From positions 59,868-123,867 of the forward strand of contig DBYZ01000003.1 in the NCBI GenBank assembly GCA_002311655.1: DNA of 64,000 nucleotides, read 5' to 3'. Position 1 is the stretch's first letter. The number at the start of each line of letters is the position of its first letter. The notes under the pieces were generated by a model. The model searched no databases. It was given only the letters and a program-made list of their open reading frames with translations, and had not been told where the DNA came from. Made by a program: the position numbers and the translations under genes. Origin of the DNA: Bacteroidales bacterium UBA1173. Lineage in GTDB: Bacteria; Bacteroidota; Bacteroidia; Bacteroidales; F082. Below are positions 4,240 through 63,021 of the stretch, one piece after another.

Positions 4240-5918
4240 AAAAACTCATATCACTAACCCTACTTCTCGCTTCAGCAGCATACGCCCTCGCCTGCACCAA
4301 CCTCATCGTCGGCAAGAAAGCATCAGCCGATGGAAGCGTGATGTGCACCTATAACTGCGACGGATTCGGATTCTCAGGATCGCTGTTCTACAGCCCCGCA
4401 GGACGACACGACAAAGACGAACTCATCGCCATCCACGGATGGGGACCAGCTCACGAAGGACAATACGTGAAACAAGTGGAATACACCTATAACGTCGTCG
4501 GACTGATGAACGAACGTCAGGTGACTATTGTCGAGACCACCTTCGACGGCAGACTGGAACTCGTAAACAACGACGGACTCCTCGACTATTTCAGCCTCAT
4601 GCGCCTCGCCCTGCAACGCTCGGCAACAGCCCGCGAAGCCATCCGCTGCATGGCGGAACTCGTCGAGGAATACGGCTACAACAGCAGCGGCGAGAGCATC
4701 ACCGTGTGCGACCCCAACGAGGCCTGGATCATGGAGATAATAGGCAAAGGCGAAGGCCGCAAAGGTGCCGTGTGGGTGGCGTTACGCATCCCCGACGACT
4801 GCATCTCGGCACACGCCAACCTCAGCAGAATCAGGCAGTTCCCGCAAGATAAGAAGAAAAGCATCAATAGCAAACAACTTAATAGGATCAACAAACCCGA
4901 AGTCGAATGCGTCTACGCCCACGATGTCATCAGTTTCGCACGCGAACAAGGATTCTACGAAGGCAGCGACAAAGACTTCTCTTTCCGCGACACCTACTGC
5001 CCCATCGACTTCGAGAATGTGCGCTACGCCGACGCCCGCGTGTGGAGCTTCTTCCGCCATCACTGCTCGGATATGGACCAGTATCTGCCTTATATCAACG
5101 GCGAATTCGACGTCTGCGACGGCATGCCTCTGTGGGTAAAACCCGACGCCCCGCTCTCTTTACGCGACCTGCAACACGACATGCGCGACCACTTCGAAGG
5201 CACACCTCTCGACATGACAGCCGACATGACAGCCGGCCCGTGGGGAATGCCGATACGCCCGCTGCCAATGCATTTCCGCTCGACCGACAGCATCGACTAC
5301 TACCGCGAACGCCCAATAGCCACACAACAAAGCGGCTTCACCATGACATGCCAGATGCGCTCATGGCTGCCCGACGACGTGGGAGGCATCACATGGTTCA
5401 ACTGCGACGATGCCGACATGGTGGCATACGTGCCGCTCTACTGCTGCATCACACAGGTGCCCGACTGCTTCCGTCCCGAAAACAATCCGCGCAACGAATT
5501 CAGCTTCGAGTCGGCATTCTGGATGAACAACTGGGTGGCAAACATGATATACCCACGATATTCGATGATGATCGGCGACCTCCGCATAGCCCAAAACGAG
5601 CTCGAAGATTATTATTTCGCCGACCAAAACGAAGTGCTGAAATCCATAGAAAAGATGACACCCGCCGACCGACGCGACTATCTCAACAAGAAAAGCATAG
5701 CCTACGCCGACCGCATGATGCAACGCTGGGATAAATTAGCCAAATACCTGATTGTCAGATACAACGACCAGATCAAACGCCGTGTCGACGAGAACGGCAA
5801 CTTCCAACGTTGGGGTCACGAGACGCCAGGCTACGACCAGCAGTTCATCGATGCCATCGGACCAGCCACCGGCGACCGTTACAAATTAAATAATGTGATT
5901 GAACGTAGAGAACGTTAG
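4236..5918 (+). CDS. C69-family dipeptidase, secreted
   Basis: A signal peptide ends 'AYALA|CTNLIVGKKASADGSVM', giving the N-terminal nucleophile Cys typical of peptidase C69. The gene has GC-rich codon usage. Confidence 0.85.
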   Translation: MKKLISLTLLLASAAYALACTNLIVGKKASADGSVMCTYNCDGFGFSGSLFYSPAGRHDKDELIAIHGWGPAHEGQYVKQVEYTYNVVGLMNERQVTIVETTFDGRLELVNNDGLLDYFSLMRLALQRSATAREAIRCMAELVEEYGYNSSGESITVCDPNEAWIMEIIGKGEGRKGAVWVALRIPDDCISAHANLSRIRQFPQDKKKSINSKQLNRINKPEVECVYAHDVISFAREQGFYEGSDKDFSFRDTYCPIDFENVRYADARVWSFFRHHCSDMDQYLPYINGEFDVCDGMPLWVKPDAPLSLRDLQHDMRDHFEGTPLDMTADMTAGPWGMPIRPLPMHFRSTDSIDYYRERPIATQQSGFTMTCQMRSWLPDDVGGITWFNCDDADMVAYVPLYCCITQVPDCFRPENNPRNEFSFESAFWMNNWVANMIYPRYSMMIGDLRIAQNELEDYYFADQNEVLKSIEKMTPADRRDYLNKKSIAYADRMMQRWDKLAKYLIVRYNDQIKRRVDENGNFQRWGHETPGYDQQFIDAIGPATGDRYKLNNVIERRER

Positions 5919-7417
5919 TGGAGAAGCACCTTCACCGTCTTCACGTCTCTTTCGTCAGAAATCTTTACGAAATAAACGCCTTGAGTGAGCTCACTAAGGT
6001 CAAACTCGGCGATTCCGTCAATGATTTTATCTGTCATGACTTGTTTGCCCAACATATCGAAAACGGCGACGTTTCCTTCTGAAATATTAGCGTTTACAGT
6101 GATTTTGCCACTTGTAGGATTTGGCATTACTGCCACTTCTATTGCCTGTTGCTCAACAACGCCGTCAGCATTGTTGCCAACCCACACATCGTCGACATAA
6201 ACGCCTTCAGCGTCGTGACCGATGCCGTTAAAAACTATCTGGTATGTCGCCGAAGGATTAGGCAGCGCTACTGTCACGGTTTCCCAGTCGCCAGTGGCTT
6301 CGGTGAAATTCAGGAGAGTGTGCCAAACGTCGTTTTTATCGGTGCGATACCCGACAATCAGCTGGTCGACAGTGCCGTAGCTCAAGCCCACCATCTGCTT
6401 GTGGTTGAATGTCAAGGTTGGATATGAAACAGCCGTCAGATCCAACGGAGTGGAGATGAGCATGGCCTCGCCACCCATCCAGATGAAAAACGCGGTGTTG
6501 TTCAAGATAAGATATCCGGGATCAATCACCCAGTCGTCAATGCCGGAAACTATCTCGGTCTGCCAACAGACAAAATTCTCTGATGCCTCAAAATCATCGA
6601 AATACGGCTCATCGTCGGTGACAACGATGACATCGCAATGTGTCTTGAACGTCGCCGGAGTCGCCCATTCCGACTCTTCGCCTCCACCACAAATCGCCTT
6701 CACAGTGAAAGTATAATTGGTCTGAGGCTCCAAACCGCCAACAGTAAACGGTTGAGTATCAGCGCTTATCATGGTACCATCCAAGTCTATGATCCAGCTT
6801 TCCTCATTGCCTGTCGTCGACCATCCGAGAGTGGCAGAAACAGCCGAAATATCAGTAGCGTGAAGGCTTATAGGACGAGCGCATCCGCCTTCACCGGCAA
6901 TCTCGATGTTGTCGACAAAAATCATGTATCCGCCAAGGCCACGGCCTAAAAACGACACCTGATAAGTCGCCGAGAGGTCGGTCAAAGTGAACGTCTCCTC
7001 AAAGAAATTCTGGTAATCGCTGATGCTGTATGTTCCCAAAGTGTGCCAGCTGTCAGTCTCCGACGAGCGGTAACTCACCACAAGTTCATCCATGTCGTAA
7101 AAACCCATCATGGCATAAGAGAAGCTGAATGTGGCTCCGTTGACACCCGAGATGTCCAAAACCGGCGAGATAAGCCGCGCCTCATCGCCTGAGTTGGTGA
7201 ATGTAAACGCCGCTAAAGTGGTGCCTGAGCCAGCCATCGTGGTCCAGTTGCCGCCTCCAACGGCCTCAACAGTCCAGCATTCGAAGGTGGTTCCTTCAAA
7301 ATCTTCGATAAAAGGCTGGCCGTCGGTGACAGTGAAATCGCATTGAGCAAATGATTTATTTAACGCGAAAACTAAGGCAATCACAGTAAAAATGGTGATT
7401 AGTAATCTCTTTTTCAT
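5915..7417 (-). CDS. T9SS C-terminal-target protein with choice-of-anchor-J-like modules and an FN3 domain
   Basis: It has a signal peptide 'MKKRLLITIFTVIALVFA' and two 'FxEDFE...CW' modules. The FN3-like segment is 'LHATDISAVSATLGWS...YTFTVKA'. The CTD is 'VMPNPTSGKITV...GVYFVKI'. I moved the start to M9 because a TATCTTTG box (7439-7446, minus) lies inside the longer ORF. Confidence 0.8.
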   Translation of the reverse strand: MKKRLLITIFTVIALVFALNKSFAQCDFTVTDGQPFIEDFEGTTFECWTVEAVGGGNWTTMAGSGTTLAAFTFTNSGDEARLISPVLDISGVNGATFSFSYAMMGFYDMDELVVSYRSSETDSWHTLGTYSISDYQNFFEETFTLTDLSATYQVSFLGRGLGGYMIFVDNIEIAGEGGCARPISLHATDISAVSATLGWSTTGNEESWIIDLDGTMISADTQPFTVGGLEPQTNYTFTVKAICGGGEESEWATPATFKTHCDVIVVTDDEPYFDDFEASENFVCWQTEIVSGIDDWVIDPGYLILNNTAFFIWMGGEAMLISTPLDLTAVSYPTLTFNHKQMVGLSYGTVDQLIVGYRTDKNDVWHTLLNFTEATGDWETVTVALPNPSATYQIVFNGIGHDAEGVYVDDVWVGNNADGVVEQQAIEVAVMPNPTSGKITVNANISEGNVAVFDMLGKQVMTDKIIDGIAEFDLSELTQGVYFVKISDERDVKTVKVLLH

Positions 7418-7438
7418 ATTGTTAAGTTTAATTATCCG

Positions 7439-7485
7439 CAAAGATAAAAATAATTTTCAAATTTCAATGTCTTTTTCTATTTTTG
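7439..7485. promoter_or_regulatory. divergent -7 promoter boxes (minus TATCTTTG 7439-7446; plus TATTTTTG 7478-7485)
   Basis: Both match TAnnTTTG. They lie about 20 nt and 12 nt upstream of the ATGs at 7417 (minus) and 7497 (plus). Confidence 0.6.
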
Positions 7486-9775: not shown

Positions 9776-12700
9776 TCATCTGAGACTCACTTTCTTGCTG
9801 AAGCTGCCTTTTGGGGTGCTTATCTTGACGATGTAAAGTCCCGCGACTTGTTGGCTCAGGTCGATGCTGAATGATTCGCCGTCAGGCAAATGACGAACAT
9901 TCTTTGTGATTATTATTTCGCCTAACATGTTGAATACCTCCACCAAGGCGGCGTCTCGTATCGTCTCATCACAACAGATGTTGATGATTCCGTTGGTCGG
10001 GTTCGGGAAGACACGGAACGGCGACGCGACTTGTTCTTCGATGTCAAGACTGCCGAGTTCTATGGTTTTGGTGAGCGACTGGCTGCAACCGGCATCGGCT
10101 GTGACCGTCAGAGTGGCTTCCGTGATGCCTGGGGCAAAACTCCACACAACGTCGGCTTCGTTGCCATGAGCGAAGACATGACCGACTTCTTCTGGCTCCA
10201 ACATCCATAAATAGTCGATTCCGCTTTGTGAATCAACTGAATAATGGCTTGAAACCGTCGTCACCGGGTTAATGTAATCGTCACCAGTGATGGCATCGCC
10301 CAAAGTTATCTCGTCAGTGAAGATGAGCTGCAATGGACTGACAATGGCATCAACATTCAATTGCAAAGTGGTGCCGCCATCATTCACGTCATTCAAACCA
10401 GGGAAATACTCCGGATGAAGTGCGTGCGGGTCGTCGAAATAGCCGTCACCGCTGGTGGTCCATTCCAGATTTTGGTAATTATAAGCATAACTGTTATCTA
10501 TAAACACGCTTTCGTTTCGGCAAACCATCAGAGAACCGCCTGAATATGCGATGGTTATCTGCTTTGGAGCGATATTCACGTCATCAATCCAAGCGCAGTC
10601 ATAAGTCAAACTCACCGAATTGTCCTTGGCGTAAGTCCATTTGAAAGTGTGGCTTCCCGCTGTCAAAGCGAAACGCTCCTCGCCCCAAGGTCTGGAGCCC
10701 GACCACTCGCCCATGTCCATATTGTCAATGGAAAACTGTAGCTTGTCGTAGTTATACTCCGACGACACTTTTTTGAAGAAACTTATCTCCGTAGCTTGAG
10801 TCTCCCGCGTAATGGAAATCACACTTGACTGGCTGTTGCCGATTTCACCTGATTTCATGCAATAGCCGTCAGAATGCGCTTCGTCATCCGACAAAACCCA
10901 TGGCGCGGTGCCATAAAACTGCCAATTCTGCGCATTGAAATGGTCGGGGTCGAAAGTCTCGTTGAATCCGCCGTAAGGCAGCAAAGTGTCGATGATGGTT
11001 GGACTGACTCCGTCATCAACTGTAATCCTTGTCATAAGCCAACCTTCGTCGCTAACGATGTTATGGTTGCTGATGCGGAAAACCACGTCCTGAACGCTTT
11101 CTTTCTCGATGGTGTTGATGATTCGCGACGGAGAATCGACGGTGATGAATGGTGCCATTATCTCCAAATAAACATTGACAGGATTACTGTCGAAATGTCC
11201 ATTGTTGGCTATTTGGACATGCATATCTGTATTGCCTGTGCCCTCGAGTTGAAGCACCGCCTGATGATTGCTGTTTTCGTAAGTGATTTCAGGCTTTATT
11301 TCGAGCGCTGGCGCGACGATATTCTGTGCGATAACGCATTCTTTTGCACCGTTGCCATCATTGACAATTACTGTGAATAAAACCTCTGTCATGTCGGGTA
11401 TGTCGTCGGCGATTTTGATACGGAAAGCGTTGTTGATGGTGACCGTCTGAGCCGGCGCTACGTTCTGTGTTTGACACGTGGCTTGGGTGATTTCCACGAA
11501 AGGCGACGCGCAAGAAAGACTCAGCGTGACATTTCCAGCCACGTTGTTCCCGTAATTATGCAGCTTGATGCCGATATTCACGTTTTCACCATTGTGGAGA
11601 ATGTTTTGATTATTTCCGGTCAGCCATCCGTCGTTGTCAACAACCACATAGGCGCCATGGTCGGAAATCACCGGCACCGCACGCTCATAGCGGAAATGGT
11701 TCTGTTTTGTGGCAGTGACGATGACCCTCTCCCCTTCTGCCAAATCCGGCAAAGCGAAAGTGCATGCTTGTCCGTGGCTTTGCTGCACGCCGATAATCTC
11801 GCCATCTTTCGAAAGACAAATTATGGCGCCTTCTTCGGCAGTCACCGTAAACTCATCAGCGTTTGACGTAAGATATTGTCCATGTGTGATTTGCAGCGGC
11901 TGAGGCACATCTGTAAACAGGTTGAGATATGTCTCACCTGTATAGCAGAATATATGTCTGGTGGAGTTTTCCTTGTTAACCCACCAATCGGGCAGGAAAT
12001 AATGATAGTCGAAGTAAAACTTGGCATCCGCAAGCACAAATGACGGTCTGATGAACTCAGGAGGAGTATCGCTGCCGACGTTGGGCTGGAAATTTGGCCA
12101 GATGCAGTCGTAGATGCCCCATTCGAGAATATCGTTGAAATAAGAATATGTGAGCGGAACCGCTCCTATGCCACCGACAGCACCTCCATTAGGTTTGATG
12201 CAGAAAGCGTCGATAAGTCCTCTGGTTGACGAGGTGAAAGAGGCAGTGCTGCAGCTGATGGAAATAACAAAAGTCATAGGCTCACCGACAAGGCAGCTCA
12301 AGCTTCCAGTAGTGAAAGACGGATACCACCATCCGTAAGGATAGGAATGTCCTCTGTATAATGTCAAAAACGCTCCTTCGTTGAGTGCGGAATGCAATGG
12401 CACCGTGTCGCTCTTTGTCAGCCATTCGTGCATCTCGCTGATCGACTCCGGAAGATAACCCTGTCCGTTTGGACCGAAATAGTCGAGCAAGACGGGGATG
12501 TTATATCCTGTCGACCAGATGGAATCAGGCGGGTCGACAGAAGTGGCGTGGAGCATGTATAAGTTGGTTGGGTTTTTCCCGAGCATGTTTCTGTAGAATC
12601 CGTTGATGCTCTGCGAGCTTATGATAAACCATCTGTTTTCGTCGTGTCCCGACGAGATTATCGGTTGGTTGTAATATGCCGCCTCAATTGGCGGATTGCA

Positions 12701-13678
12701 TTCATATTCTATGGTTTTCTTCACAAAAGCCTGATACTCTGCCATGTTTCGCGCCGTGATTCGGCTGATTGACAAGTCTGGCAGACTGTCGCCGTTCATG
12801 TCGCAATAGGGATAGTCGGTGGCATAACGTTGGGAGGCGTAATCGCCTTCGATGGTGTAATGGTAAAACGGAACGATGCCAGAGTTGTTGTAATAGCCAC
12901 CAAACAGAAGCACTGCCGCAGGCGGGATAGCCCAGTTGTTATAGGCATTGAGGATGTAGTTGCGGATACTGGTGGTTGTGTTGCCTCCACATTCCGAGAG
13001 ACTCACCACCTTGGTCAGGATGCCTTGTTTTTGGCGGAAAGCTTTCAGAGTGTCAGCCAAAGCCAAGACTTCCGTGTTATCCGGAGCGATGATAAGATAC
13101 TCACAGCCTTCACCGTCTTTATCAAAATTCGACTTAAGCAAACTGTAATAGTCTGATTCCGGAAGCATCTCCTTATTGAGAACTATGCTGCGCAGTATGT
13201 GTTTCCAATCAGGGTTGAGGTAGCGCGCTTCACCGAATTGACCGTTGCCGCCTTCAAAACGGATGTCGATATTTATGTCTTGAATGAGTTCCAAAGTTTT
13301 TTGTTTCGGATTGTACCGATAAGGCGTAACTTTAAGCAGAACCACATCGAGACCACGTATTGTCGTCGGTTTTATTTCGACAACATCCCTTTCCGAAATG
13401 TCGGCGCCTTCAATCATCTTGGCAATGGGCGACAAATCGATGTTGCCAAGCGTTCTGCCACCATGCTCTTGCACCTCCAAACATACTGTCGCCCCTTTTG
13501 GCACAGCGATATAATGGCTTTCGGATGGCAAGTTGGGCACACCACCTCTGACACTGACTTTCGGCAGTGAATAATGTAAACTGAGACCCTTTTCAGTGCT
13601 GCTTTCCACTCGAAGACCCTGGGCGTTCATAACACCCGTCACAAGCAAAATGACTGCAAGCAATAAATATCGTTTCAT
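9776..13678 (-). CDS. C25 (gingipain-like) family cysteine peptidase, T9SS cargo, 1300 aa
   Basis: It has a signal peptide and a propeptide-like N-terminus. 'CEYLIIAPDN' is present. The catalytic-type motifs are 'LYRGHSYPYGWW' and 'ISISCSTASF'. The CTD is 'FRVFPNPTNGII...GLYIVKI'. Confidence 0.8.
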   Translation of the reverse strand: MKRYLLLAVILLVTGVMNAQGLRVESSTEKGLSLHYSLPKVSVRGGVPNLPSESHYIAVPKGATVCLEVQEHGGRTLGNIDLSPIAKMIEGADISERDVVEIKPTTIRGLDVVLLKVTPYRYNPKQKTLELIQDINIDIRFEGGNGQFGEARYLNPDWKHILRSIVLNKEMLPESDYYSLLKSNFDKDGEGCEYLIIAPDNTEVLALADTLKAFRQKQGILTKVVSLSECGGNTTTSIRNYILNAYNNWAIPPAAVLLFGGYYNNSGIVPFYHYTIEGDYASQRYATDYPYCDMNGDSLPDLSISRITARNMAEYQAFVKKTIEYECNPPIEAAYYNQPIISSGHDENRWFIISSQSINGFYRNMLGKNPTNLYMLHATSVDPPDSIWSTGYNIPVLLDYFGPNGQGYLPESISEMHEWLTKSDTVPLHSALNEGAFLTLYRGHSYPYGWWYPSFTTGSLSCLVGEPMTFVISISCSTASFTSSTRGLIDAFCIKPNGGAVGGIGAVPLTYSYFNDILEWGIYDCIWPNFQPNVGSDTPPEFIRPSFVLADAKFYFDYHYFLPDWWVNKENSTRHIFCYTGETYLNLFTDVPQPLQITHGQYLTSNADEFTVTAEEGAIICLSKDGEIIGVQQSHGQACTFALPDLAEGERVIVTATKQNHFRYERAVPVISDHGAYVVVDNDGWLTGNNQNILHNGENVNIGIKLHNYGNNVAGNVTLSLSCASPFVEITQATCQTQNVAPAQTVTINNAFRIKIADDIPDMTEVLFTVIVNDGNGAKECVIAQNIVAPALEIKPEITYENSNHQAVLQLEGTGNTDMHVQIANNGHFDSNPVNVYLEIMAPFITVDSPSRIINTIEKESVQDVVFRISNHNIVSDEGWLMTRITVDDGVSPTIIDTLLPYGGFNETFDPDHFNAQNWQFYGTAPWVLSDDEAHSDGYCMKSGEIGNSQSSVISITRETQATEISFFKKVSSEYNYDKLQFSIDNMDMGEWSGSRPWGEERFALTAGSHTFKWTYAKDNSVSLTYDCAWIDDVNIAPKQITIAYSGGSLMVCRNESVFIDNSYAYNYQNLEWTTSGDGYFDDPHALHPEYFPGLNDVNDGGTTLQLNVDAIVSPLQLIFTDEITLGDAITGDDYINPVTTVSSHYSVDSQSGIDYLWMLEPEEVGHVFAHGNEADVVWSFAPGITEATLTVTADAGCSQSLTKTIELGSLDIEEQVASPFRVFPNPTNGIINICCDETIRDAALVEVFNMLGEIIITKNVRHLPDGESFSIDLSQQVAGLYIVKISTPKGSFSKKVSLR

Positions 13679-13696: not shown

Positions 13697-15718
13697 TTAG
13701 TGCTGAATTGTTAATTTTCGAATACAAGAGGCATTGTCTCCCACAATTTTCACGAAATAGATTCCGGTCAGGAAATCACTGGTTGATATCTCGTATCTGT
13801 CGCCTTGCATCCTGCAATTGTAACAGAGCTTTCCTTGAATATCATAGACGGTCAGTTCGGCATTGCGTAATGGCTCGCTGACAGTTATGGTAACGAACGT
13901 TGAAGCAGGGTTTGGCGCAACTGTCAGCGTGACTTCATCAGATTCGCCAACAAAGTCTGGCATTGTGGGCAGTTCGGCAAACCAGATGCCACCAGCCATT
14001 GGCGAAGCGTAAATACGCTCTCCGTCGATGTAGATGTCGAGTATTGGTCCAACGACTGGAATATTGTCCATCTGCAGCCATTTGTTGCAATGGTCGTATT
14101 TCAGGTAAATGGAGCCGTCTTCGCAACCCACGGCAACGATGGTGTCGGTGGTGGTGATGCGCCTGATGGTGGCATCGCCAGGCAGCGCGTCGACAGCGTA
14201 CCAAGTCGATCCCATGTCGCCAGTGAAGTGAAGGCCGTGCTCGCGAGTGCCTAAATACAAACCGTTGTCATGGTAGCGCAATGTTGTGTAGTTGACTCCC
14301 TCAAACGGGGAGTTGAGGACTTGCCAATTGCTGCCTTGTTCACGGCTGTGGCGCAACACGCCGTCGTAGGAGACATGAAACATAGTGGCTCCGTCCCATG
14401 CAAGGTCAACGACATCGATTTCATAAGGAAGACAAGTCGGCACATACCAATGCTGGCCCAGACCGAAGGAGACATACATCCTGTCTTTGCTTCCCACAAT
14501 GATTTGCGAACCGCAGCGCACGAGGCTTTGAAGCCATTGTGCCTCTGGCAATCCTGAACCTGCAGCAGTGAACGATGTGCCTCTGTTGGTGGAGAGGAAG
14601 CTGCCAAGCATGTCGGTGCCGATAAACACATTGTTGTTTTCAACCATCATGCCGCGGATTTCCACCGTCCCGATGCCAGTGCTCTGTGTCCAAGTGATGC
14701 CATCGTCGGTGTAAAACATATCGGAGCCGTGGGTAGCTGCCAGCATACGTCCGTTGCTGATACCCATGTTGCCCACAGATGCGAGAAACGTAGGTGTGTT
14801 GGTACGAATCCATCCTGTGCCGTCGCTGTTGCCACGGAAGATGCGACCTTGTGTGTCGCCCACGAAGAGATACCCGTCGCGAGCTTCCATGCACCATAGG
14901 TTCTTCGACGAAAGGTTGGAGTTGAAATCATGCCAGGTTGTGCCGTTGTCGTATGAGGCAAAGACTCCTTCGCCGATGCAGGCGGCATAAAGGGTGTCGC
15001 CTAAATGGGCATAGCCTTTCGCTTGCTTGTTGAGACCGCTGCTCGTCCACGTGGTGCCGTTGTCGCTTGAAACCATCACTCCTTGACCGAGCACAGTGGC
15101 GAAAACTTTTCCATTGTGGCAGTAGATGCCGAGGACATCGCTGTTCAGACCATTATTGCACGACTCCCATGAGGCTCCATCATCGAAAGAACGGTAGATG
15201 CCGCGCTTATATGTGGCAATGAACATGGCATCTTCGTTGGCGGCCATGAAATATGGATAACGCACGTCGCTGGGGAAAAGACCTGTGACGTATTCGCCCT
15301 GAGTGCCTTCAGTGGATTGGAAAACACCTTGTACATAAGTTGAGGCGAGTAGCGAGCCGTTGTGTACCAATATGTGCTTGATGTAATGGTTGTGCAAATA
15401 AGGGTCCGGTGTCCAGTGAACGCCGCCGTCAGTGCTGCGGAAAATGTTCTCGTCGGTGGAGAGAAAGACTGTGTCATTATACGCGGCAAGGCATTTTGTG
15501 TCGCATGAAGTGAGTCCGTTGTTGCGGAACTCCCAGTTTAAGCCTCGGTCACTGCTCACCATGACGCCGCCTCCTGTGGCGGCATAATACAGACTGTCGG
15601 TGCAGAGAATACTCCTGACGTAGCGACCCTGAGGACCGTCCATCGACTGCCATTGTGCTTGTGCATTATGAGCAAGCAATGTGAAAACAAAGAGAAATAA
15701 TAAAGCAGTGTTTTTCAT
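13697..15718 (-). CDS. BNR/sortilin-type (Ycf48-like) beta-propeller repeat protein, T9SS cargo
   Basis: S-x-D-x-G-x-x-W motifs recur (SSDRGLNW, STDGGVHW, SFDDGASW, SSDNGTTW, SYDNGTTW). The CTD is 'VAPNPASTFVTI...GIYFVKI'. Confidence 0.8.
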   Translation of the reverse strand: MKNTALLFLFVFTLLAHNAQAQWQSMDGPQGRYVRSILCTDSLYYAATGGGVMVSSDRGLNWEFRNNGLTSCDTKCLAAYNDTVFLSTDENIFRSTDGGVHWTPDPYLHNHYIKHILVHNGSLLASTYVQGVFQSTEGTQGEYVTGLFPSDVRYPYFMAANEDAMFIATYKRGIYRSFDDGASWESCNNGLNSDVLGIYCHNGKVFATVLGQGVMVSSDNGTTWTSSGLNKQAKGYAHLGDTLYAACIGEGVFASYDNGTTWHDFNSNLSSKNLWCMEARDGYLFVGDTQGRIFRGNSDGTGWIRTNTPTFLASVGNMGISNGRMLAATHGSDMFYTDDGITWTQSTGIGTVEIRGMMVENNNVFIGTDMLGSFLSTNRGTSFTAAGSGLPEAQWLQSLVRCGSQIIVGSKDRMYVSFGLGQHWYVPTCLPYEIDVVDLAWDGATMFHVSYDGVLRHSREQGSNWQVLNSPFEGVNYTTLRYHDNGLYLGTREHGLHFTGDMGSTWYAVDALPGDATIRRITTTDTIVAVGCEDGSIYLKYDHCNKWLQMDNIPVVGPILDIYIDGERIYASPMAGGIWFAELPTMPDFVGESDEVTLTVAPNPASTFVTITVSEPLRNAELTVYDIQGKLCYNCRMQGDRYEISTSDFLTGIYFVKIVGDNASCIRKLTIQH

Positions 15719-17232: not shown

Positions 17233-18858
17233 TTATCTCTTAACAAATTTCACGACAGCGACGTTCATTCTCACGAAATAAATGCCGGCGTTGAGGTCTG
17301 CCACGTTGATAGCATTCTCGCCTTCAACAACATTAACAGCCATCACCATGCGGCCTGTCATGTCGATAATCTGAACCTGAGCATCTTTTTCTGCAACGAT
17401 GTTGATGTTGTCGTTTGCCGGGTTAGGATAGAGGTCAAATTTCACAGCCTCGTTCTCTTCCACATCCAACATAACACTTGCGATTCTCACATAGTCAATC
17501 TCCCATGAAGATGCATTCTCGTCGGTGCTTGTGTAGACAAATGCCACACAGAATGAATCGGCTCCACCTAAACTGAGAATGTTTTCTGTAATGTCAACCA
17601 ATCCTGATTCAACCCATTCGTAGTTGCCTGTTGAGTATGCGAAAAGACCTGTGATATCTGCCCATGCAGCCTCTTCAGGAGCCATTCCAATTTCATAATT
17701 GACAGAAACCATAACTCTAAGTGGGTTGCCGTTGAATTTCATTGCTGTGCTGAACTCAAGATTGATGTTTTCAGCCATTTCGATATTCGGGCTGATAAGC
17801 CAGTCTTCGTTAGCATGTGCTGAACCATCGGCATAACCGTTCATGTAAGCGTAGGTGTTGTCGTTATGTGTAGCCCAGACCCACTCTTGCTCGCCTTCGA
17901 CATTGTATGTTGTGAATGCGCCGAGATCTTCATTAAATCCTTCGAAGAACAAGTCATAAGTCATTGGCATTGTCGCACCACAAACAGGATATGTGCCGTC
18001 GGTCTTGTAGTCGATGTTAGCACCGCTGTTGGTGTATGGGAAAATAGCGAAATGATATGCCTCGCCGCCTGCCAGATAAACAAATGTCACGTGCTGGACA
18101 CCGTAATTCACGTTATAAGCCAAATCATTGTTCGGCACAGGCTCGCCGTCAACTGGAACCTCAATCGCGCCAGGAGAAGCCACGACAAGGTATTTCTGAG
18201 GAAGCTGCTCACCTGTTGCATCTGTCCAATGGAGAGTGATACCATCACCATTTACCGTAGCGTAGAATATTTCAGGATAGTTGCTTGGCTCAGGATAAAT
18301 GATTGAACCGCCGCCTGCCTTGAAGATGTAAACCAAACCATTGACGTTTGATGACTCTTTGTAGCATCCGAACAATGTGCTTGTCACGTTGTAGCGCATA
18401 ATATTCTGCTCCACACCGCCAATTGATGTAGGGACAAAACCAATGCCATCTTCGCCAACTGCCATGTTCCACTTTCCTTTCTCATCGAGAGCTGACTGTG
18501 TCTTGAGGTAGTTGCCGCCGCCTGCTGCATACAGATAGCCACCTTTCACCTCGTCGAAGAATGTCCAGTTGCCGCCATCCTGACCTAAAGTGATCTCATA
18601 AGGATCTGTCTGGTTGTTCGGATCTGTAGCGACATCTGTCACAATGGCGTCGTCGTTGACTGCAATCTCAACAGCATGACGGTTGTTTGATTTCTGATAT
18701 GACATCACAAAAGCCTGTCCGTCATTATCATAACCGACGAGAAGCACCTTGTCACCGGCGTTCAACTCCGACAACGATGTCACTTTTGTGTATGTGGTCT
18801 GAGCCATCATGCTCAATCCCATCAACACTAATGCAAAGAATAGTAAAGTTTTTTTCAT
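17233..18858 (-). CDS. T9SS cargo protein of unknown function
   Basis: It has a signal peptide 'MKKTLLFFALVLMGLSMMAQ'. The CTD is 'LYPNPANDNINI...GIYFVRM'. The N-terminal module resembles an internal module of the 1554-aa protein. Confidence 0.75.
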   Translation of the reverse strand: MKKTLLFFALVLMGLSMMAQTTYTKVTSLSELNAGDKVLLVGYDNDGQAFVMSYQKSNNRHAVEIAVNDDAIVTDVATDPNNQTDPYEITLGQDGGNWTFFDEVKGGYLYAAGGGNYLKTQSALDEKGKWNMAVGEDGIGFVPTSIGGVEQNIMRYNVTSTLFGCYKESSNVNGLVYIFKAGGGSIIYPEPSNYPEIFYATVNGDGITLHWTDATGEQLPQKYLVVASPGAIEVPVDGEPVPNNDLAYNVNYGVQHVTFVYLAGGEAYHFAIFPYTNSGANIDYKTDGTYPVCGATMPMTYDLFFEGFNEDLGAFTTYNVEGEQEWVWATHNDNTYAYMNGYADGSAHANEDWLISPNIEMAENINLEFSTAMKFNGNPLRVMVSVNYEIGMAPEEAAWADITGLFAYSTGNYEWVESGLVDITENILSLGGADSFCVAFVYTSTDENASSWEIDYVRIASVMLDVEENEAVKFDLYPNPANDNINIVAEKDAQVQIIDMTGRMVMAVNVVEGENAINVADLNAGIYFVRMNVAVVKFVKR

Positions 18859-51196: not shown

Positions 51197-51220
51197 AACT
51201 AATACTATTTGAATTTTTCA

Positions 51221-51249
51221 GGGGACAATTGGGGAGTTGTCCCCTTTTT
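51221..51249 (+). terminator. intrinsic terminator
   Basis: ggggacaa-ttggggag-ttgtcccc followed by ttttt. Confidence 0.75.
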
Positions 51250-51302
51250 CATTTTTTATTTGATTTTTCAGCCGTTGACGATGAAATTTTTTGTACCTTT
51301 GC

Positions 51303-51442
51303 CGCCGCTTTGGAAAAGGGAATGCCGTGAAAATCGGCAACAGTACCCGCTGCTGTAAGTCCGGCGTAAAGGCCTGTCAATCAAGCCACTGTCGAGAGAT
51401 GGGAAGGCGACAGGCTCGGATGAGTCAGAAGACCTTGCCAAG
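51303..51442 (+). promoter_or_regulatory. cobalamin (B12) riboswitch
   Basis: Four conserved elements are present: 'AAGGGAAUGCCGUGAAAAUCGGC', 'ACCCGCUGCUGUAAG', the B12-box core 'AAGCCACUG...GGGAAGGC', and 'GAGUCAGAAGACCUUGCC'. A TACCTTTG -7 box sits at 51294-51301. Confidence 0.85.
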
Positions 51443-51482
51443 CAACATAGTAAATTTATTTCGGGATTAAAATTAAATTATC

Positions 51483-54400
51483 ATGAAAAAGTGTTTCTTT
51501 TTAGCACTGTCGCTTTTCTTTGCGACTATCGTAAACGCCCAATTGTCAGGCACTTACACAATCAGCAGTAACTCTTCCTCAAACCCTGACTACACCTCGT
51601 TGAGCGCGGCTGCCTCGGCATTGTCGGCTGGCGTGTCGGGTCAGGTGGTATTTGAAATCGCTCCTGGAACGTATGAGGAGTACGTCACCATCAACCAAAT
51701 CAACGGAGCATCGGCGACAAACCGTGTCATTTTCAGAGGCATGGGTGGCGACAACCAACAAGTCGTGATCACCAGCAACGCCGGATACACCGACAACAGC
51801 ACCATCAAGCTCAACGGCACCGACTACATCACCTTTGAGAACATGACGGTTACAACATCATCAACGGCAAAGGCACGCTTACTGGTATTTGACGGCCAGT
51901 GTGACTACGACAGATTCGAAAACGTGCGTTTCGTAGGCATAGAGGTGCCTACAAATTCATCCGACAACGACAAAAACCTTGTTCACATGAACAACGGCGA
52001 CGGCATTGTCAACCACGACACACAATTCGTAGGCTGCCAGTTCATCAACGGATGTATAGCCCTTTATCTGCAAGGAAAAAACATGACATTGTTCAATGAA
52101 AATGTGCTTGTTGAAAACTGTAACTTTGAAAATCAACAGTTTAAGTCGATTTACATCACTTTCTACAACAATGTTGTACTTCGTGGAAATACCGTCGTCA
52201 ACGCCAACGATTTCAAGACAGATTACAATGCCATTGATATTTTCCAGTGCTATAACGGCGCCATCATTGAGAAAAACGTGATGAATATTACTCGTACGAC
52301 AAGTTATTCTACCGTTTTCAGAATCCGTCCGTTGGTTGGAACAGCTGAAAATCACGTCATCATCAGAAACAACATTGTAAATCTTCAGGCTAATTCAAGT
52401 AGTTATGCATTCGCCATCGACTACAATGAATGCGCTTACATTGATTTTGCGCATAATACCCTAAAATGCACCGGAACAGGCGAAAATATCAACATTTTCG
52501 TACAGAAAAACGGTACAAACTTCAACTTTTACAACAATTTGCTTGTGAATACAACCAACGGCTACGTTTTCCGCTTCAACAACAGTGTCGATAGCCGCGT
52601 TTGCGACTACAATCGCATACAATATACAGGAGCTAACATCGGAAGGTTCACAACAACAGATTGCGCCACGTTAAGCGACTGGACTGCAGCCACAGGCTTC
52701 GACGCACAATCGGCTCTTTGCACACCTAACTTTGTAGGCACCAACGACTTACACATCACCGATGCAACAGGTTTGACAGTTGCAAATCCACTTTCATACG
52801 TCACAAAAGACATCGACGACCAGAACCGTTCAACCACAGCACCATGTGCAGGAGCAGATGAGTTTACAAGTGGCACCAACCTGCCTCCAGTCGTGGCAAA
52901 CCCAATAAGTAACATCACTTTTGAAAACTATCCGGCAAGCCAGTCAATCAACTTGAGCAACACCTTCAACGACCCTGACGATCCGAATACCGGTATAGTT
53001 ATCACGGTAGCTTCAAACAGCAACCCATCGCTCGTCTCAACATCGTTGAGCAACAACATTTTGACTGTCACACGTCTTGTTGCGACAGGTGGAATAGCCA
53101 CTATCACTTTGAATGCAGAAAGCGCCGGACAGTCGGTGCAGACCTCGTTCACGGTGGAGTGTCTCGCTGAAGACCTGCCGCCTGTCGTGGCTAACCCATT
53201 GGCTCCAATCAGCTTCACCGACTACCCACAGACGCTGAATTTCGACCTCAGCAATGTTTTCGACGATCCTGACAACAACAACGAATTCATCGAAATCACA
53301 ATTCAGAGCTGTCCGTCGGAAATCACCGCCACAATCGATTACAGCGACATGCTTTGGGTTACAAGAACCACTTCTAACGCATTCACCAACAAGACTTTAG
53401 TGATTCGCGCAACAAGCAACGGCAAACATGTGGATATGAACGTGAGCGTTTCTGGCGTTGAAGTCGTAATCACTGTCGGAACAGCCACTTTCGATGACGT
53501 CGCTTTAGGTGCAAACGGCTACTGGCAAGGTGAATCTGGCGACAATGAGATGTTCAGCGGCGGCTGGATTTTCACCAACTATTACATGCCGGAATATTCA
53601 TTCTGGGGTGGTTTCACAGCCTCTAACCACACCGATATGTCGCAGTCGGGATTGAATGCACAATACACAGCGGCTACCGGTGCCGGCTACGATGGCTCGA
53701 CACAATACGGCGTGGCATACTGCATGGGCGTTCAAACTGATGTCTACGCTTCTGACAATCAGTCTCATACAGTTACAGGATGCTACGTCACAAACAACCT
53801 CTGGGCTTATCAGAACATGCATGACGGCGACGCTACCGCCACACCATTCGGAGGCACATCGGGCAACGACCCTGACTGGTTTAAGCTCACCGCCACGGGC
53901 AAAAACGCCAGCGGTCAGACAGTAGGAACAGCCGAGTTTTATCTCGCCGACTATCGTTTCACAAACAACGACGAAGACTATATTTTGAACACCTGGGAAT
54001 GGTTCGACCTCAGCACTCTCGGTGCGGTTCATACCATCTCGTTCAGCCTCTCTTCATCGAAAAACAACAGCGGCGGCATGATTACCCCGGCTTACTTCTG
54101 TATTGAAAACTTCAACGGAACAGCTCCTACACCGCCGCAAGACCTTCCACCTTACGTAGTCAACCCTGTAGGTGACGTAGATTTTACAAGTTTCCCAGAA
54201 ATAGTATATGTTAATCTTGATGGTGTTGTAACCGACGATGATGACCCAGATGAAAATATCGATTTTAATATCCTTTCCATATCAAATACTGAATATCTTT
54301 ACGCTGTCATGCAAGGCAAGAGATTGAAAATGACTCGTGTATCAAGGGAGGAATCAATTGTAACCATTACCATGCGAGCCTACAGTGATGGTCAATATGT

Positions 54401-54683
54401 TGATTTTGATGTGCATGCAATATTGCATTATGTACCAGATGGAATTGAAGATAATGAAGTTACAACAATATCAGTATATCCAAATCCCGCACATGATTTC
54501 GTAACCGTAGAGACGTGCCATGGCGCGTCTGTACAAAGCATTATTGTAAGTGACGTTACAGGAAAAACAATTCTATCATCATCAGAATCAAGAATTGATG
54601 TCAGCGCATTATCGGAAGGTATGTATTTCATCACGATTATCACTGAAAATCAAAAATTTGTTGAAAAAATCATTAAAAAATAG
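51483..54683 (+). CDS. T9SS cargo with an N-terminal beta-helix region, three Ig/cadherin-like modules and a DUF4465-like domain (1066 aa)
   Basis: It has a signal peptide. N/V/I-rich beta-helix repeats run to about aa 450. Three modules start 'LPP(V/Y)V(A/V)NP'. A DUF4465-like block lies at about nt 53480-54120, running 'ATFDDVALGANGYWQGE...FWGGFTASNHTD...DWFKLTATG...FYLADYR...ITPAYFCIENF'. The CTD is 'VYPNPAHDFVTV...GMYFITI'. Confidence 0.8.
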   Translation: MKKCFFLALSLFFATIVNAQLSGTYTISSNSSSNPDYTSLSAAASALSAGVSGQVVFEIAPGTYEEYVTINQINGASATNRVIFRGMGGDNQQVVITSNAGYTDNSTIKLNGTDYITFENMTVTTSSTAKARLLVFDGQCDYDRFENVRFVGIEVPTNSSDNDKNLVHMNNGDGIVNHDTQFVGCQFINGCIALYLQGKNMTLFNENVLVENCNFENQQFKSIYITFYNNVVLRGNTVVNANDFKTDYNAIDIFQCYNGAIIEKNVMNITRTTSYSTVFRIRPLVGTAENHVIIRNNIVNLQANSSSYAFAIDYNECAYIDFAHNTLKCTGTGENINIFVQKNGTNFNFYNNLLVNTTNGYVFRFNNSVDSRVCDYNRIQYTGANIGRFTTTDCATLSDWTAATGFDAQSALCTPNFVGTNDLHITDATGLTVANPLSYVTKDIDDQNRSTTAPCAGADEFTSGTNLPPVVANPISNITFENYPASQSINLSNTFNDPDDPNTGIVITVASNSNPSLVSTSLSNNILTVTRLVATGGIATITLNAESAGQSVQTSFTVECLAEDLPPVVANPLAPISFTDYPQTLNFDLSNVFDDPDNNNEFIEITIQSCPSEITATIDYSDMLWVTRTTSNAFTNKTLVIRATSNGKHVDMNVSVSGVEVVITVGTATFDDVALGANGYWQGESGDNEMFSGGWIFTNYYMPEYSFWGGFTASNHTDMSQSGLNAQYTAATGAGYDGSTQYGVAYCMGVQTDVYASDNQSHTVTGCYVTNNLWAYQNMHDGDATATPFGGTSGNDPDWFKLTATGKNASGQTVGTAEFYLADYRFTNNDEDYILNTWEWFDLSTLGAVHTISFSLSSSKNNSGGMITPAYFCIENFNGTAPTPPQDLPPYVVNPVGDVDFTSFPEIVYVNLDGVVTDDDDPDENIDFNILSISNTEYLYAVMQGKRLKMTRVSREESIVTITMRAYSDGQYVDFDVHAILHYVPDGIEDNEVTTISVYPNPAHDFVTVETCHGASVQSIIVSDVTGKTILSSSESRIDVSALSEGMYFITIITENQKFVEKIIKK

Positions 54684-56051: not shown

Positions 56052-56639
56052 ATGAACATCAATTTTGTAGAGATATTCGGTGCCTTCTTCGTGATGGCAG
56101 CCATCATCGACATCTTCGGCTCCATCCCGATTTTTGTCAGCATGAAAGAACAGAACAAGGTCATCAAGGCAGGCCAGGCCTGCCTTGTGGCTTTGGCATT
56201 GTTTTTAGCGTTTTTCTTCGCCGGTGACGGATTGTTGAAACTGTTCGGCATCGACAAGGAGTCGTTCGCCGTGGCAGGCTCGTTTGTGCTGTTTGTGCTT
56301 GCCGTCGAGATGATTCTCGGTCGCGAAATCATCAAAAACGAGAACAACAACGGCGGTGCAAGCATCGTACCTGTGGCATTTCCGCTGATAGCAGGTCCGG
56401 GCGCCCTCACAGGTCTCCTCTCACTGCGCGCCGACTACGCCATCATCAACATACTCATCGGATTGCTGCTCAACATCGCCCTCGATTACGTAGTGATTCG
56501 TTATCTTGATAAAATCCAAAAGTTTTTAGGAAAAAACCTGGTTTTCATCCTCAGAAAATTCTTCGGCGTGATTTTGCTGGCGATTGCCGTCAACATGTTC
56601 GTCAACAACATCATGGTGATTATCGCGAAAGTTAATTAA
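56052..56639 (+). CDS. MarC-family (UPF0056) integral membrane protein
   Basis: It has 'IDIFGSIPIFV', 'VPVAFPLIAGPGALT' and six hydrophobic segments. Confidence 0.8.
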   Translation: MNINFVEIFGAFFVMAAIIDIFGSIPIFVSMKEQNKVIKAGQACLVALALFLAFFFAGDGLLKLFGIDKESFAVAGSFVLFVLAVEMILGREIIKNENNNGGASIVPVAFPLIAGPGALTGLLSLRADYAIINILIGLLLNIALDYVVIRYLDKIQKFLGKNLVFILRKFFGVILLAIAVNMFVNNIMVIIAKVN

Positions 56640-56698: not shown

Positions 56699-57523
56699 AT
56701 GAACAACAACGCAGAGTTTTGGGCTTCGGTCAACGGCATTATAACTGACGGCTTCACGTCTGAAGGTCTGCAAAAATTGGATAGTTATGCAGAGCAATTC
56801 ATCAGCGGGCGGTTGGTATATCAACGATTTTCACCGCGCGAACAGCATGGCTGCGCAGCGGGAGGTGCAACAAATGTCATTGCATCCTTACTCGCGGGAG
56901 CAAAAACTGGAACAGATAGCGAGCATCAGGCAGCAATCAGCGACTTCAAAAGAGAATGTCAACTTGGAGCGCAGCAGGAAGCAGTAATTGAAAAATGGGC
57001 GAAACGGGTATATTGCTGGTATGAAAATGTCGAGCAATTTCTTGAGGTCTCATTTGGATATCGCTTAGCCGAAGGAGGCGAAGCCATTGTTTATGACCAT
57101 GGCTCAACACTTATCAAGTCCATCGGATTGGATTATTTCATACAGCCTATTTTTGCCCTCGACCGTATATCTTTGCACAACACCTACTTCCCGGAAACAA
57201 CAATGACTGTGCTTGGATTTGGTCGAACTGCAGAAGGTGATTTTAAAGTAATCGTTGAACAACCTTTTATAGAGGGTTCACATGTATCAGACGAAGAAAT
57301 AGCTGTTTTTGCTCAAAAAATGGGATTTGATTTGATAAATCCTAAAAACTGGACTTTTGCCACCCCTGAAATCTATCTTAGTGACCTTCACGATGAAAAC
57401 GTGATTCGCTCGAAAGAAGGAAATATTTTTGTTGTTGATTGCGATATTAGGATCAACACGCCGGAGTTGAAATGCGGTGGAAAAAGATTTTTGAATACAG
57501 AAGTTGAGTTTTGTAATTATTGA
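56699..57523 (+). CDS. stand-alone atypical protein-kinase-fold protein (polyvalent-protein kinase-like)
   Basis: The candidate Gly-rich loop and Lys are in 'LAEGGEAIVYDHGSTLIKS'. The catalytic-loop-like segment is 'YLSDLHDENVI'. 'IFVVDCD' is DFG-equivalent. The N-terminal roughly 110 aa are unassigned. Confidence 0.55.
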   Translation: MNNNAEFWASVNGIITDGFTSEGLQKLDSYAEQFISGRLVYQRFSPREQHGCAAGGATNVIASLLAGAKTGTDSEHQAAISDFKRECQLGAQQEAVIEKWAKRVYCWYENVEQFLEVSFGYRLAEGGEAIVYDHGSTLIKSIGLDYFIQPIFALDRISLHNTYFPETTMTVLGFGRTAEGDFKVIVEQPFIEGSHVSDEEIAVFAQKMGFDLINPKNWTFATPEIYLSDLHDENVIRSKEGNIFVVDCDIRINTPELKCGGKRFLNTEVEFCNY

Positions 57524-61983: not shown

Positions 61984-63021
61984 TTATCGCACCATGAATT
62001 TTGTCGTTTCAAGGATTTTTTCGCCCTTGATCTGCAAAATATAGAGTCCCTTTTCCAATTCGGCAACTGAAATACTACCCTCAGACTGCCCTGAAGCTAC
62101 TTTTTGTCCCATCACATTGAAAATGGAATATTCCACCATTTCGCAAGGAATGTTCATATAAATGACATCGGAAGCCGGATTCGGATAAACATCAAGCGAC
62201 TGCTTACTTGCGAGTTCATTGACAGAAGTGTGATCTGTCGGGATGATGTTCAAGATGATGCCTTCAATCTTTGTCCATCCGTAATTAAATCCACCGAAAT
62301 CAGGGATGTCGAACCAGTTATCCATGGTACCGCCCCAGCCAAAGTTGATATGGAACTTGCCGTCAGATTCGCGATAGCCATCGACAACCACATTATGGCC
62401 GGAGGTTCCCGCATTGTTTTCAACCGCCAGATGAGCAGGATAACCGTCTTGTAAATTGGAAATCAAAGTGGCATACATCTCATCGCTGGCTTCACGATAC
62501 AGCACACAGTCGGTGAAACCGAAACGCTGGTAGGCGGCATACGCCTGATTCACAGCAAAGGTGCCTGAGCCATAGTTAGGCGAAGCGGTAAAGACCTCTG
62601 TGCATGCCACGCCGCAAGCGAAAATCACAGCGGCAACCAACGAATCGGAAAGCTCCTCGCCACGCTGGAAGGTGGCGTCGACGGAATCCAACAACACATT
62701 AAGCTGCGGAAATGAAGGGAACATATAAGTCTCCCAATCGTCGTCGATATGGAATTGGCGACCTGCGTAATTGGCGGTGTAGTCGTCACCATCGTCGAAA
62801 CGAGTTTCTTGCGTCGTCCCCAAATAATTGATAATCTGACCCATAGCTGTTGCCGGACATCCGGTATAACAGCGGGCGTAATTCTCGAATGGATCTGCCG
62901 GACAAAGCATGTTGTACGGATAAGTCTGGTTCCATTTAGTAGTTAAGAGAGCTTTTTGCGCCATTCCCGTCAAAGCGCAAGACAATAGCATCAAGCAAAT
63001 AAAAATAGACTTTTTATTCAT
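61984..63021 (-). CDS. C10-family (streptopain-like) cysteine peptidase, T9SS cargo
   Basis: It has 'TKWNQTYPYNMLCP', 'CYTGCPATAMGQIINY' and 'GHNVVVDGY'. The CTD is 'VYPNPASDVIYM...GLYILQI'. Confidence 0.8.
   Translation of the reverse strand: MNKKSIFICLMLLSCALTGMAQKALLTTKWNQTYPYNMLCPADPFENYARCYTGCPATAMGQIINYLGTTQETRFDDGDDYTANYAGRQFHIDDDWETYMFPSFPQLNVLLDSVDATFQRGEELSDSLVAAVIFACGVACTEVFTASPNYGSGTFAVNQAYAAYQRFGFTDCVLYREASDEMYATLISNLQDGYPAHLAVENNAGTSGHNVVVDGYRESDGKFHINFGWGGTMDNWFDIPDFGGFNYGWTKIEGIILNIIPTDHTSVNELASKQSLDVYPNPASDVIYMNIPCEMVEYSIFNVMGQKVASGQSEGSISVAELEKGLYILQIKGEKILETTKFMVR

Follow-up and report, generated by a model that had tools for sequence, protein, structure and literature searches.

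The 64,000-nucleotide (nt) stretch of contig DBYZ01000003.1 of Bacteroidales bacterium UBA1173 analysed in this study (hereafter, the window) contains a cobalamin (vitamin B12) riboswitch and, directly behind it on the same strand, an open reading frame (ORF) of 1066 amino acids (aa) at positions 51483-54683 (+). The encoded protein is composed, in this order, of a signal peptide, a beta-helix, two immunoglobulin (Ig)-like modules, a DUF4465 domain, a third Ig-like module and a type A C-terminal domain (CTD) of the type IX secretion system (T9SS); its public annotation is 'DUF4465 domain-containing protein' and nothing further. Genes for a coenzyme A (CoA)-transferase-like enzyme and a membrane protein of the MarC family follow. 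The features of the locus are:

51220-51250 (+): intrinsic-terminator-like hairpin at the 3' end of an HTH_34 gene, with an 11-bp stem (AGGGGACAATTGGGGAGTTGTCCCCT) and then TTTTT
51283-51455 (+): cobalamin riboswitch aptamer (RF00174, Rfam), with the B12 box GCCACTG...GGGAAGGC and AGTCAGAAGACCT, and CCCG in the L5 loop
51294-51301 (+): candidate Bacteroidota -7 promoter box TACCTTTG, recognised in the sequence a few bases 5' of the P1 helix
51460-51482 (+): short expression platform, with the conserved TTCGGGA (CGGG at 51462-51465) and then a 17-nt A/U-rich leader up to the ATG
51483-51539 (+): Sec signal peptide MKKCFFLALSLFFATIVNA (next residue Q), read from the sequence, signal peptidase I type
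51540-52880 (+): N-terminal right-handed parallel beta-helix (aa 20-466, 447 aa; AlphaFold2 and Foldseek), without a Pfam family
52881-53462 (+): two tandem Ig/cadherin-like modules (aa 467-563 and 565-660), starting with LPPVVANP and with F-x-D-P-D-D/N inside
53463-54137 (+): DUF4465/BtuJ-type augmented beta-jellyroll with a predicted corrinoid-binding site (Pfam core aa 704-877)
54144-54437 (+): third Ig/cadherin-like module (aa 888-985), starting with LPPYVVNP
54474-54683 (+): T9SS type A C-terminal sorting domain (aa 998-1066) and stop codon
54690-56009 (+): 4-hydroxybutyrate-CoA-transferase-like gene of the acetyl-CoA hydrolase/transferase family (439 aa; Pfam, PDB 2oas)
56052-56639 (+): MarC/NAAT-family membrane protein gene (Pfam, NCBIfam), always paired with the CoA-transferase gene

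The riboswitch, the cargo protein and its BtuJ-type domain

The cobalamin riboswitch was the sole Rfam family matched in the window. The match (51283-51455, +) covered the complete RF00174 covariance model (positions 1-189 of 189) with 77.9 bits (gathering score 31.5, E-value 1.7e-17), and the same segment scored 162.6 bits with a clade-specific model (R1) built from 13 Rfam-verified aptamers, whose E-values are rough and for which all key cases were cross-checked with Rfam. The distance from the aptamer end to the ATG of the 1066-aa ORF is 28 nt, and in a single-sequence fold the P1 helix (GCUUUGG/CCAAGC) begins at 51307. On the other side, a strong terminator-like hairpin (51220-51245, with the T-run after it) separates the riboswitch unit from transcription of the upstream HTH_34 gene. 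A preliminary description of the locus, prepared from the sequence without database searches, had given the riboswitch a promoter of its own. The box TACCTTTG is indeed there, its TTTG recurs without exception 5' of 13 related aptamers, and it fits the Bacteroidota -7 promoter consensus, TAnnTTTG; its promoter role is what we infer from this, and transcription would then start about 5 nt 5' of P1. A sigma-70 promoter scan (12 sites versus 10.9 expected) is uninformative for Bacteroidota.

The leader between the aptamer and the start codon is conserved as well. Its TTCGGGA motif is invariant in nine orthologous leaders, and the CGGG within it, complementary to the invariant CCCG of the L5 loop, is located 7-10 nt 3' of the aptamer end in 14 of 15 leaders (in the exception, L085, CGGG is found further downstream). 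In more distant orthologues the platform is longer (about 100 nt) and contains the hairpin GCCUU-CGGGAAC-AAGGGC. An L5-L13 kissing loop is known from solved cobalamin riboswitches, and the leader CGGG is a candidate L13 partner of the L5 CCCG. As only 17 A/U-rich nt separate the CGGG from the ATG, a kissed, ligand-bound aptamer would occupy the ribosome landing zone.

The protein behind the riboswitch is, judged by its sequence, a T9SS type A cargo, since, like the gingipains and other cargo of this type, it combines an N-terminal Sec signal with a sorting domain at its extreme C-terminus (PF18962, Por_Secre_tail, aa 998-1064, 50.4 bits; TIGR04183, type A, 46.9 bits versus a cut-off of 23). 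Neither a lipobox cysteine nor a lipoprotein export signal was found at its N-terminus (MKKCFFLALSLFFATIVNA followed by QLSG). The three LPP(V/Y)V modules, of about 97 aa each, start at aa 467, 565 and 888, are mutually homologous (between-module matches in orthologues at E 1e-12 to 1e-15) and are predicted by AlphaFold2 to form beta-sandwiches (predicted local distance difference test score, pLDDT, of 75-90). A Pfam search at E-values up to 10 gave no significant match for these modules or for the beta-helix (He_PIG, E 0.11). The AlphaFold2 model of the whole protein has a mean pLDDT of 58, and Foldseek with this model returned generic multi-Ig arrays alone (template modelling score, TM, <0.2).

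The DUF4465 domain was identified by PF14717 at aa 704-877 (nt 53592-54113) with 176.7 bits (gathering score 25, E 7.5e-52), and the profile was covered in full (positions 2-176 of 176). The best PDB sequence matches of this region were 9qpm (E 5.1e-27), BtuJ1 (9fct, E 6.8e-27) and the D5EK51-B12 complex (9hmu, E 4.5e-23). In Bacteroides thetaiotaomicron, DUF4465 is found in two proteins, BtuJ1 (BT1491) and BtuJ2 (BT1957) (10.1101/2025.07.01.662609; PMC13616437), and PDB entries of the family include 9FCT, 9I2L and 9HMU. BtuJ1 and BtuJ2 are surface-exposed lipoproteins of about 250 aa that are encoded in riboswitch-regulated btu loci and whose affinities for B12 and cobinamide are nanomolar to sub-nanomolar; BtuJ1 hands B12 to BtuG2 and BtuH2, which are encoded at another locus (10.1101/2025.07.01.662609). 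B12 binding was shown experimentally for eight divergent DUF4465 proteins, the D5EK51-B12 complex was solved, and the HI loop, (G/N)TPAYF, is the most conserved B12-contacting element of the family, its tyrosine being retained in 97% of members (PMC13398666). In the window protein this motif is present as ITPAYF (aa 867-872), in which Y871 aligns with BtuJ1 Y245, and both W774 and Y871 are invariant across the clade of related loci described below. From this motif and the family membership we infer that the domain binds corrinoids. A protein outside the locus, P0170 (2569 aa), carries five tandem DUF4465 domains together with a dockerin and a Planctomycete extracellular motif, and would be, as far as its domains tell, a multivalent B12 binder in Planctomycetota.

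At the level of sequence, the preliminary description had thus been correct: the B12 riboswitch upstream of a T9SS cargo gene, the DUF4465-like block (placed at about 53480-54120), the three Ig/cadherin-like LPPVVANP modules and the roughly 450-aa parallel beta-helix were all recovered with the models given here. It had erred in regarding DUF4465 as a BtuH-type domain. This assignment was rejected, because the literature places DUF4465 in BtuJ (BT1491/BT1957) and regards BtuH as a lipoprotein family of its own, and BtuH-named chains were not among the PDB sequence matches of the DUF4465 region. BtuH is comparable in its mode of action, as an accessory B12 binder that is exposed at the surface, has a stalk of Ig-like domains and is loosely tied to BtuBG, and it belongs to a different protein family.

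The nearest characterised counterparts are therefore BtuJ1 and BtuJ2, with which the window protein shares the augmented beta-jellyroll, the HI-loop TPAYF tyrosine, a (here predicted) extracytoplasmic location and the link to a cobalamin riboswitch; furthermore, BtuJ1 likewise supplies transporters whose genes lie at a different locus. The differences are considerable. The BtuJ proteins are single-domain lipoproteins with a lipoprotein export signal and reside inside btuB/btuG loci, whereas the window protein is a 1066-aa chain that begins with a signal peptidase I signal and a beta-helix, contains three Ig-like modules and ends in a T9SS sorting domain, its operon stands alone without a transporter gene, and the equivalent of BtuJ1 Y146 is a tryptophan. 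It thus lacks two features of the characterised BtuJ proteins, as it has neither their lipoprotein export route nor their place in a btu locus.

Conservation and module shuffling in related genomes

A homologue survey with one genome per GTDB species (tblastn) yielded 78 loci. About 50 of these belong to uncultured Bacteroidales from the guts of cattle, yak, buffalo, sheep and deer and, in some cases, of humans or other animals, and constitute a clade that includes Candidatus Limimorpha, 'bacterium F082', UBA1184 and one member of the Lentimicrobiaceae, with identities as low as 44%. In rumen and gut metagenomes the protein is represented by more than 120 clusters at 73% identity or more, all with PF14717 and PF18962, and bovine rumen contigs carry identical copies of the 1066-aa protein.

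With the clade covariance model, 45 of the 46 species-level clade loci that have enough upstream sequence to be evaluated were found to have a same-strand cobalamin riboswitch upstream of the homologue, and Rfam reported one directly upstream in every submitted homologue locus that includes upstream sequence. The arrangement is thus found throughout the clade. The genes located 5' of the riboswitch differ between species (HTH_34, an Na/H antiporter, ResB); as the riboswitch is kept despite these differences, it travels with the cargo gene. The readings of the riboswitch as a chance match, or as a remnant that serves the downstream genes alone, were rejected on the strength of this conservation.

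Genes for B12 transporters are not part of this arrangement. Pfam searches of all large ORFs revealed no TonB-dependent receptor, BtuG (PF16819) or BtuFCD in the window, and phmmer searches with BtuB and BtuG queries from related operons revealed no BtuB- or BtuG-like ORF there, in line with the absence noted beforehand; this holds over about 45 related species, and among the clade loci no BtuB- or BtuG-like ORF is present within 10 kb. In contrast, more distant Bacteroidales from outside the rumen (L059-L062, L064, L067, L072 and L081) have operons consisting of a cobalamin riboswitch, one or more DUF4465 genes, a TonB-dependent receptor (BtuB; Plug and TonB barrel) and DUF5074/BtuG. No description of such loci was found in the literature. 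They share with the window locus the riboswitch and the Ig-like modules, and differ in that the DUF4465 genes are co-transcribed with BtuB and BtuG and that the tblastn match begins only at about aa 460, thus without the beta-helix region. The one DUF4465 protein tested from these operons (L064, 853 aa) also carries Por_Secre_tail. A T9SS-tailed DUF4465 protein inside a riboswitch-btuB-btuG operon ties the family to B12 uptake, and the transporter-linked operons of distant Bacteroidales indicate that the uncoupling from the transporter locus is derived and specific to the clade. In view of these operons, the phrase 'instead of a BtuB-type transporter' in the preliminary description was an overstatement, the protein most likely complementing BtuBG encoded elsewhere. 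In one of these clusters (L062, 6116-8641), the gene placed first behind the riboswitch, before DUF4465, btuB and btuG, encodes NrdD, the anaerobic ribonucleotide reductase and B12-independent isozyme.

Four architectures were distinguished among the relatives. These are: (i) type A, beta-helix, Ig, Ig, DUF4465, Ig and CTD, i.e. the window protein; (ii) type B, DUF4465, three to four Ig modules and CTD (616-715 aa); (iii) type C, beta-helix and CTD (547 aa); and (iv) type D, beta-helix, two to three Ig modules and CTD, without DUF4465 (749-843 aa). Types C and D are located directly behind cobalamin riboswitches of their own (L085, 5659-7644; L091, 4658-6644; L087, 5812-8250; L056, 1905-4707). 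In L089 (2875-6644) and L044 a type B DUF4465 gene adjoins a type C gene in one operon, which is a split form of the fusion found in the window. The occurrence of the two parts as a fusion in some genomes and as adjacent genes in others suggests that the beta-helix and the B12 binder are functionally linked.

The beta-helix (aa 20-466) was modelled by AlphaFold2 from a 30-sequence alignment with a pLDDT of 91.7 and a predicted TM score of 0.92, and all 42 Foldseek matches at E <= 0.001 were right-handed parallel beta-helix proteins. The top match was the GH136 lacto-N-biosidase LnbX (TM 0.62, 12% identity), and other neighbours were PL6 lyases, pectin methylesterases and the adhesin PfbA, with overall identities of 9-16%. 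These neighbours raise the question of whether the beta-helix is the business end of the protein, which would then be a B12-starvation-induced adhesin or glycan-active enzyme docking onto or opening corrinoid-rich material (producer cells, feed particles), DUF4465 collecting the corrinoid that becomes available. Such a role would agree with the glycosidases, lyases, esterases and adhesin among the structural neighbours, with the beta-helix-only T9SS proteins (547 aa, or 749-843 aa with Ig modules) having their own riboswitch, with the fusion or neighbourhood of beta-helix and DUF4465 in one operon and with the repetition of the module in giant surface proteins. Nevertheless, the structural asparagine ladder is the only invariant feature over 30 beta-helix homologues, among which no conserved acidic or basic catalytic-type residues were seen, and this argues, weakly, for a binding or structural role over catalysis; moreover, identity to any enzyme is 9-16%, and no riboswitch accompanies a beta-helix homologue (33% identity) from outside the clade. 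We regard this role as rather unlikely; it is also compatible with, and not exclusive of, corrinoid capture by DUF4465 at the cell surface. Membership in a specific CAZy or enzyme family (GH136, PL6, CE8 or others) was rejected, given these identities, the lack of a Pfam match and the lack of invariant catalytic-type residues; weak PF13229 matches were obtained on the beta-helix of orthologues, the window protein itself having no Pfam match there.

Giant proteins of 2000-7800 aa (P0124-P0270) contain 4-15 copies of the same module, at 27-31% identity. Three of them (P0176, P0188 and P0193) were scanned with Pfam, and one has a T9SS tail and another PKD-like repeats. By these sequences, the module appears to be a building block of giant surface proteins in Bacteroidota that has so far not been catalogued.

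A further group of large proteins (1341-1909 aa), rich in fibronectin type III (fn3) domains, is found in clade neighbourhoods directly behind cobalamin riboswitches of their own: L020, 13721-18448 (-); L031, 15053-20782 (+); L053, 5192-9328 (-); L056, 5300-9910 (-); and L089, 6806-10831 (-). They contain Pur_ac_phosph_N-like domains and large unannotated N- and C-terminal regions, and at least one has a weak Por_Secre_tail match. A PDB sequence search for a B12-binding domain in them gave fibronectin-type matches alone.

The riboswitch of the window had been assigned to a single gene, and in this respect the earlier picture had to be changed, as the unit is an operon. The CoA-transferase gene begins 6 nt past the stop codon of the 1066-aa ORF, the MarC gene follows it, and a terminator scan revealed no terminator-like site between the cargo, CoA-transferase and MarC genes, so that the riboswitch and the three genes constitute one operon in which the CoA-transferase gene is probably co-transcribed. 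The enzyme is closest to 4-hydroxybutyrate CoA-transferases (PDB 2oas, 432 bits) and remains under every NCBIfam equivalog cut-off. The pair is also located 3' of the cargo gene in close relatives, and its members are of similar size throughout (CoA-transferase-like 437-439 aa, MarC/NAAT 195-217 aa, as a fixed pair; L010, L017-L022, L025, L028, L050, L055, L056 and L065). A cobalamin riboswitch of its own precedes the pair in at least nine other species, which makes it an independent member of the B12 regulon, and in five species it is placed between the riboswitch and the DUF4465 gene. The pair may give a B12-independent succinate/4-hydroxybutyrate carbon route when the B12-dependent methylmalonyl-CoA mutase route stalls; the literature searched held nothing relevant on a B12-regulated CoA-transferase.

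These arrangements, and the mere 6 nt between the cargo and CoA-transferase genes, would also suit a riboswitch that exists mainly for the CoA-transferase/MarC bypass, the large gene having been inserted between them and its regulation by B12 being incidental. We hold this to be very improbable. DUF4465 and beta-helix genes located apart from the pair keep their own riboswitch (L020, L028, L031, L046, L085 and L089), and DUF4465 is itself a B12-binding family; both facts argue that regulation of the large gene was selected for and is not incidental, and the loci with the cargo gene alone behind the riboswitch largely refute a riboswitch meant for the downstream genes.

Proposed function of the operon

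Taken together, it is probable that the locus is a B12-repressed operon of an uncultured rumen Bacteroidales bacterium, and that its 1066-aa product is displayed by the T9SS, catches corrinoids and delivers them to a transporter encoded elsewhere. This view builds on the observed riboswitch, the domain composition, the conserved link between riboswitch and gene, the B12-binding motif and the absence of transporter genes nearby. The riboswitch is predicted to be an OFF switch, as are almost all cobalamin riboswitches. When intracellular corrinoid is bound, the L5 CCCG would kiss the CGGG 17 nt 5' of the start codon, and the aptamer, held over the A/U-rich leader, would block translation initiation. 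Under B12 limitation three products would appear, i.e. the 1066-aa protein, the CoA-transferase-like enzyme and the MarC-family membrane protein, the latter two probably adjusting metabolism to scarce B12. Sec would carry the 1066-aa protein over the inner membrane, and the T9SS, recognising the type A CTD, would then export it over the outer one; by analogy with type A cargo, trimming by PorU and attachment to anionic lipopolysaccharide make covalent surface anchoring its most likely fate. DUF4465, held off the surface by the Ig-like modules and the beta-helix, would bind cobalamin and other corrinoids with high affinity, and the captured corrinoids would be passed to BtuG/BtuB encoded elsewhere in the genome, as BtuJ1 does.

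In Flavobacterium, part of the type A cargo of the T9SS is set free and not anchored, and the window protein might likewise be a released 'corrinophore', secreted into the medium, binding corrinoids at a distance and recaptured like a hemophore or siderophore. The lack of a transporter or docking partner gene near the 1066-aa ORF would fit such a protein, and so would the finding that BtuJ capture in B. thetaiotaomicron takes place on vesicles and reaches past the cell (PMC13616437). On the other hand, no recapture receptor is evident, three Ig-like modules and a beta-helix give the protein a long stalk-like build, as is typical for proteins displayed at the surface, and a free high-affinity binder would be an easily lost public good in the dense rumen community. 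Release therefore appears quite unlikely, although sequence alone cannot separate it from surface tethering. Of the secreted or surface-tethered corrinoid-capture protein suggested in the preliminary description, the T9SS cargo with a domain of a B12-binding family is upheld, and the 'corrinophore' is not favoured over surface tethering.

Several findings weigh against B12-repressed capture at the surface. Within the domain, the DE-helix Y146 of BtuJ1 is replaced by W774 (Y776, aligned to BtuJ1 Y148, is two residues on), so that the tyrosine is lost and the aromatic character retained, and the DUF4465 part of the AlphaFold2 model is unusable (pLDDT about 30). The predicted P13 hairpin, which would present the CGGG, is weak (-2.7 kcal/mol). 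One clade locus, L042 (10001-12853; 950 aa, 65% identity), has no cobalamin riboswitch within 10 kb; its homologue is preceded by three other same-strand genes and may have lost or replaced B12 control. The proposed receiving transporter is unseen, btuB, btuG and btuFCD being absent from the 64-kb window and from the 10 kb around each of 50 related loci, and none of the T9SS machinery genes (PorK/L/M/N, Sov, PorU/V) scored above cut-off in the window.

The combination appears undescribed in the literature searched, as the preliminary description had supposed for B12 piracy: full-text searches gave no report of a T9SS cargo that contains a vitamin-binding domain or is controlled by a riboswitch and no paper linking the T9SS with DUF4465/BtuJ or B12 capture. 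So far, the model of B12 capture in Bacteroidota has been built wholly on surface lipoproteins of human-gut Bacteroides (BtuG, BtuH, BtuJ and BtuK), whereas widespread, uncultured, mostly ruminant-gut Bacteroidales appear to display the BtuJ-type fold by the T9SS, in large modular proteins uncoupled from the transporter. The core function could have been predicted from the domain, but not the route of delivery, the modular architecture, the separation from the transporter or the B12-regulated beta-helix partner.

A wider reading, which we put forward tentatively and consider less probable than not, is that a ruminant-gut-centred clade of Bacteroidales has a modular T9SS corrinoid acquisition system separate from the lipoprotein relay of Bacteroides. 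Its interchangeable modules would include the BtuJ-type domain and the approximately 447-aa beta-helix as a new component of the B12 regulon (which could be a docking, glycan-opening or even corrinoid-handling domain), and the fn3-rich giants and a CoA-transferase/MarC pair rerouting metabolism at low B12 would belong to the same regulon. Three leads arise from the locus: the beta-helix that follows the B12 regulon whether fused or not, the fn3-rich giants under riboswitches and the putatively B12-repressed CoA-transferase/MarC pair. B12 serves as a currency in gut and rumen communities, and since the B12 supply of ruminants comes wholly from rumen microbes, corrinoid sequestration in the rumen is of practical interest.

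Other genes of the window and its relatives

Five more T9SS type A CTD cargo genes are present in the window: 5915-7441 (-), 9776-13678 (-), 13697-15718 (-), 17233-18858 (-) and 61984-63021 (-). They indicate an organism that relies heavily on the T9SS. Among the five are a gingipain-like C25 peptidase of 1300 aa and a streptopain-like peptidase (C10). An FGE-sulfatase protein encoded in the window was considered as a component of the T9SS machinery (PorK/GldK or GldJ) and rejected, as it scored 92.8 bits against the 350-bit PorK/GldK cut-off and was also far under the GldJ cut-off.

In a related genome, a thiamine pyrophosphate (TPP) riboswitch is located 5' of a TonB-dependent receptor gene about 9 kb from the DUF4465 gene (L004, 1154-1245, -; L005, 108-199, -). 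From its position behind this riboswitch, the receptor is predicted to be a thiamine-regulated outer-membrane transporter.

Just past the MarC gene of the window, a Kinase-PolyVal domain protein is encoded at 56699-57523 (+), and this gene is not conserved beside the operon in relatives. Near the window start, a protein with a Schlafen group 3 helicase domain is encoded at 1802-3856 (+). Both domains are frequent in mobile or defence contexts.

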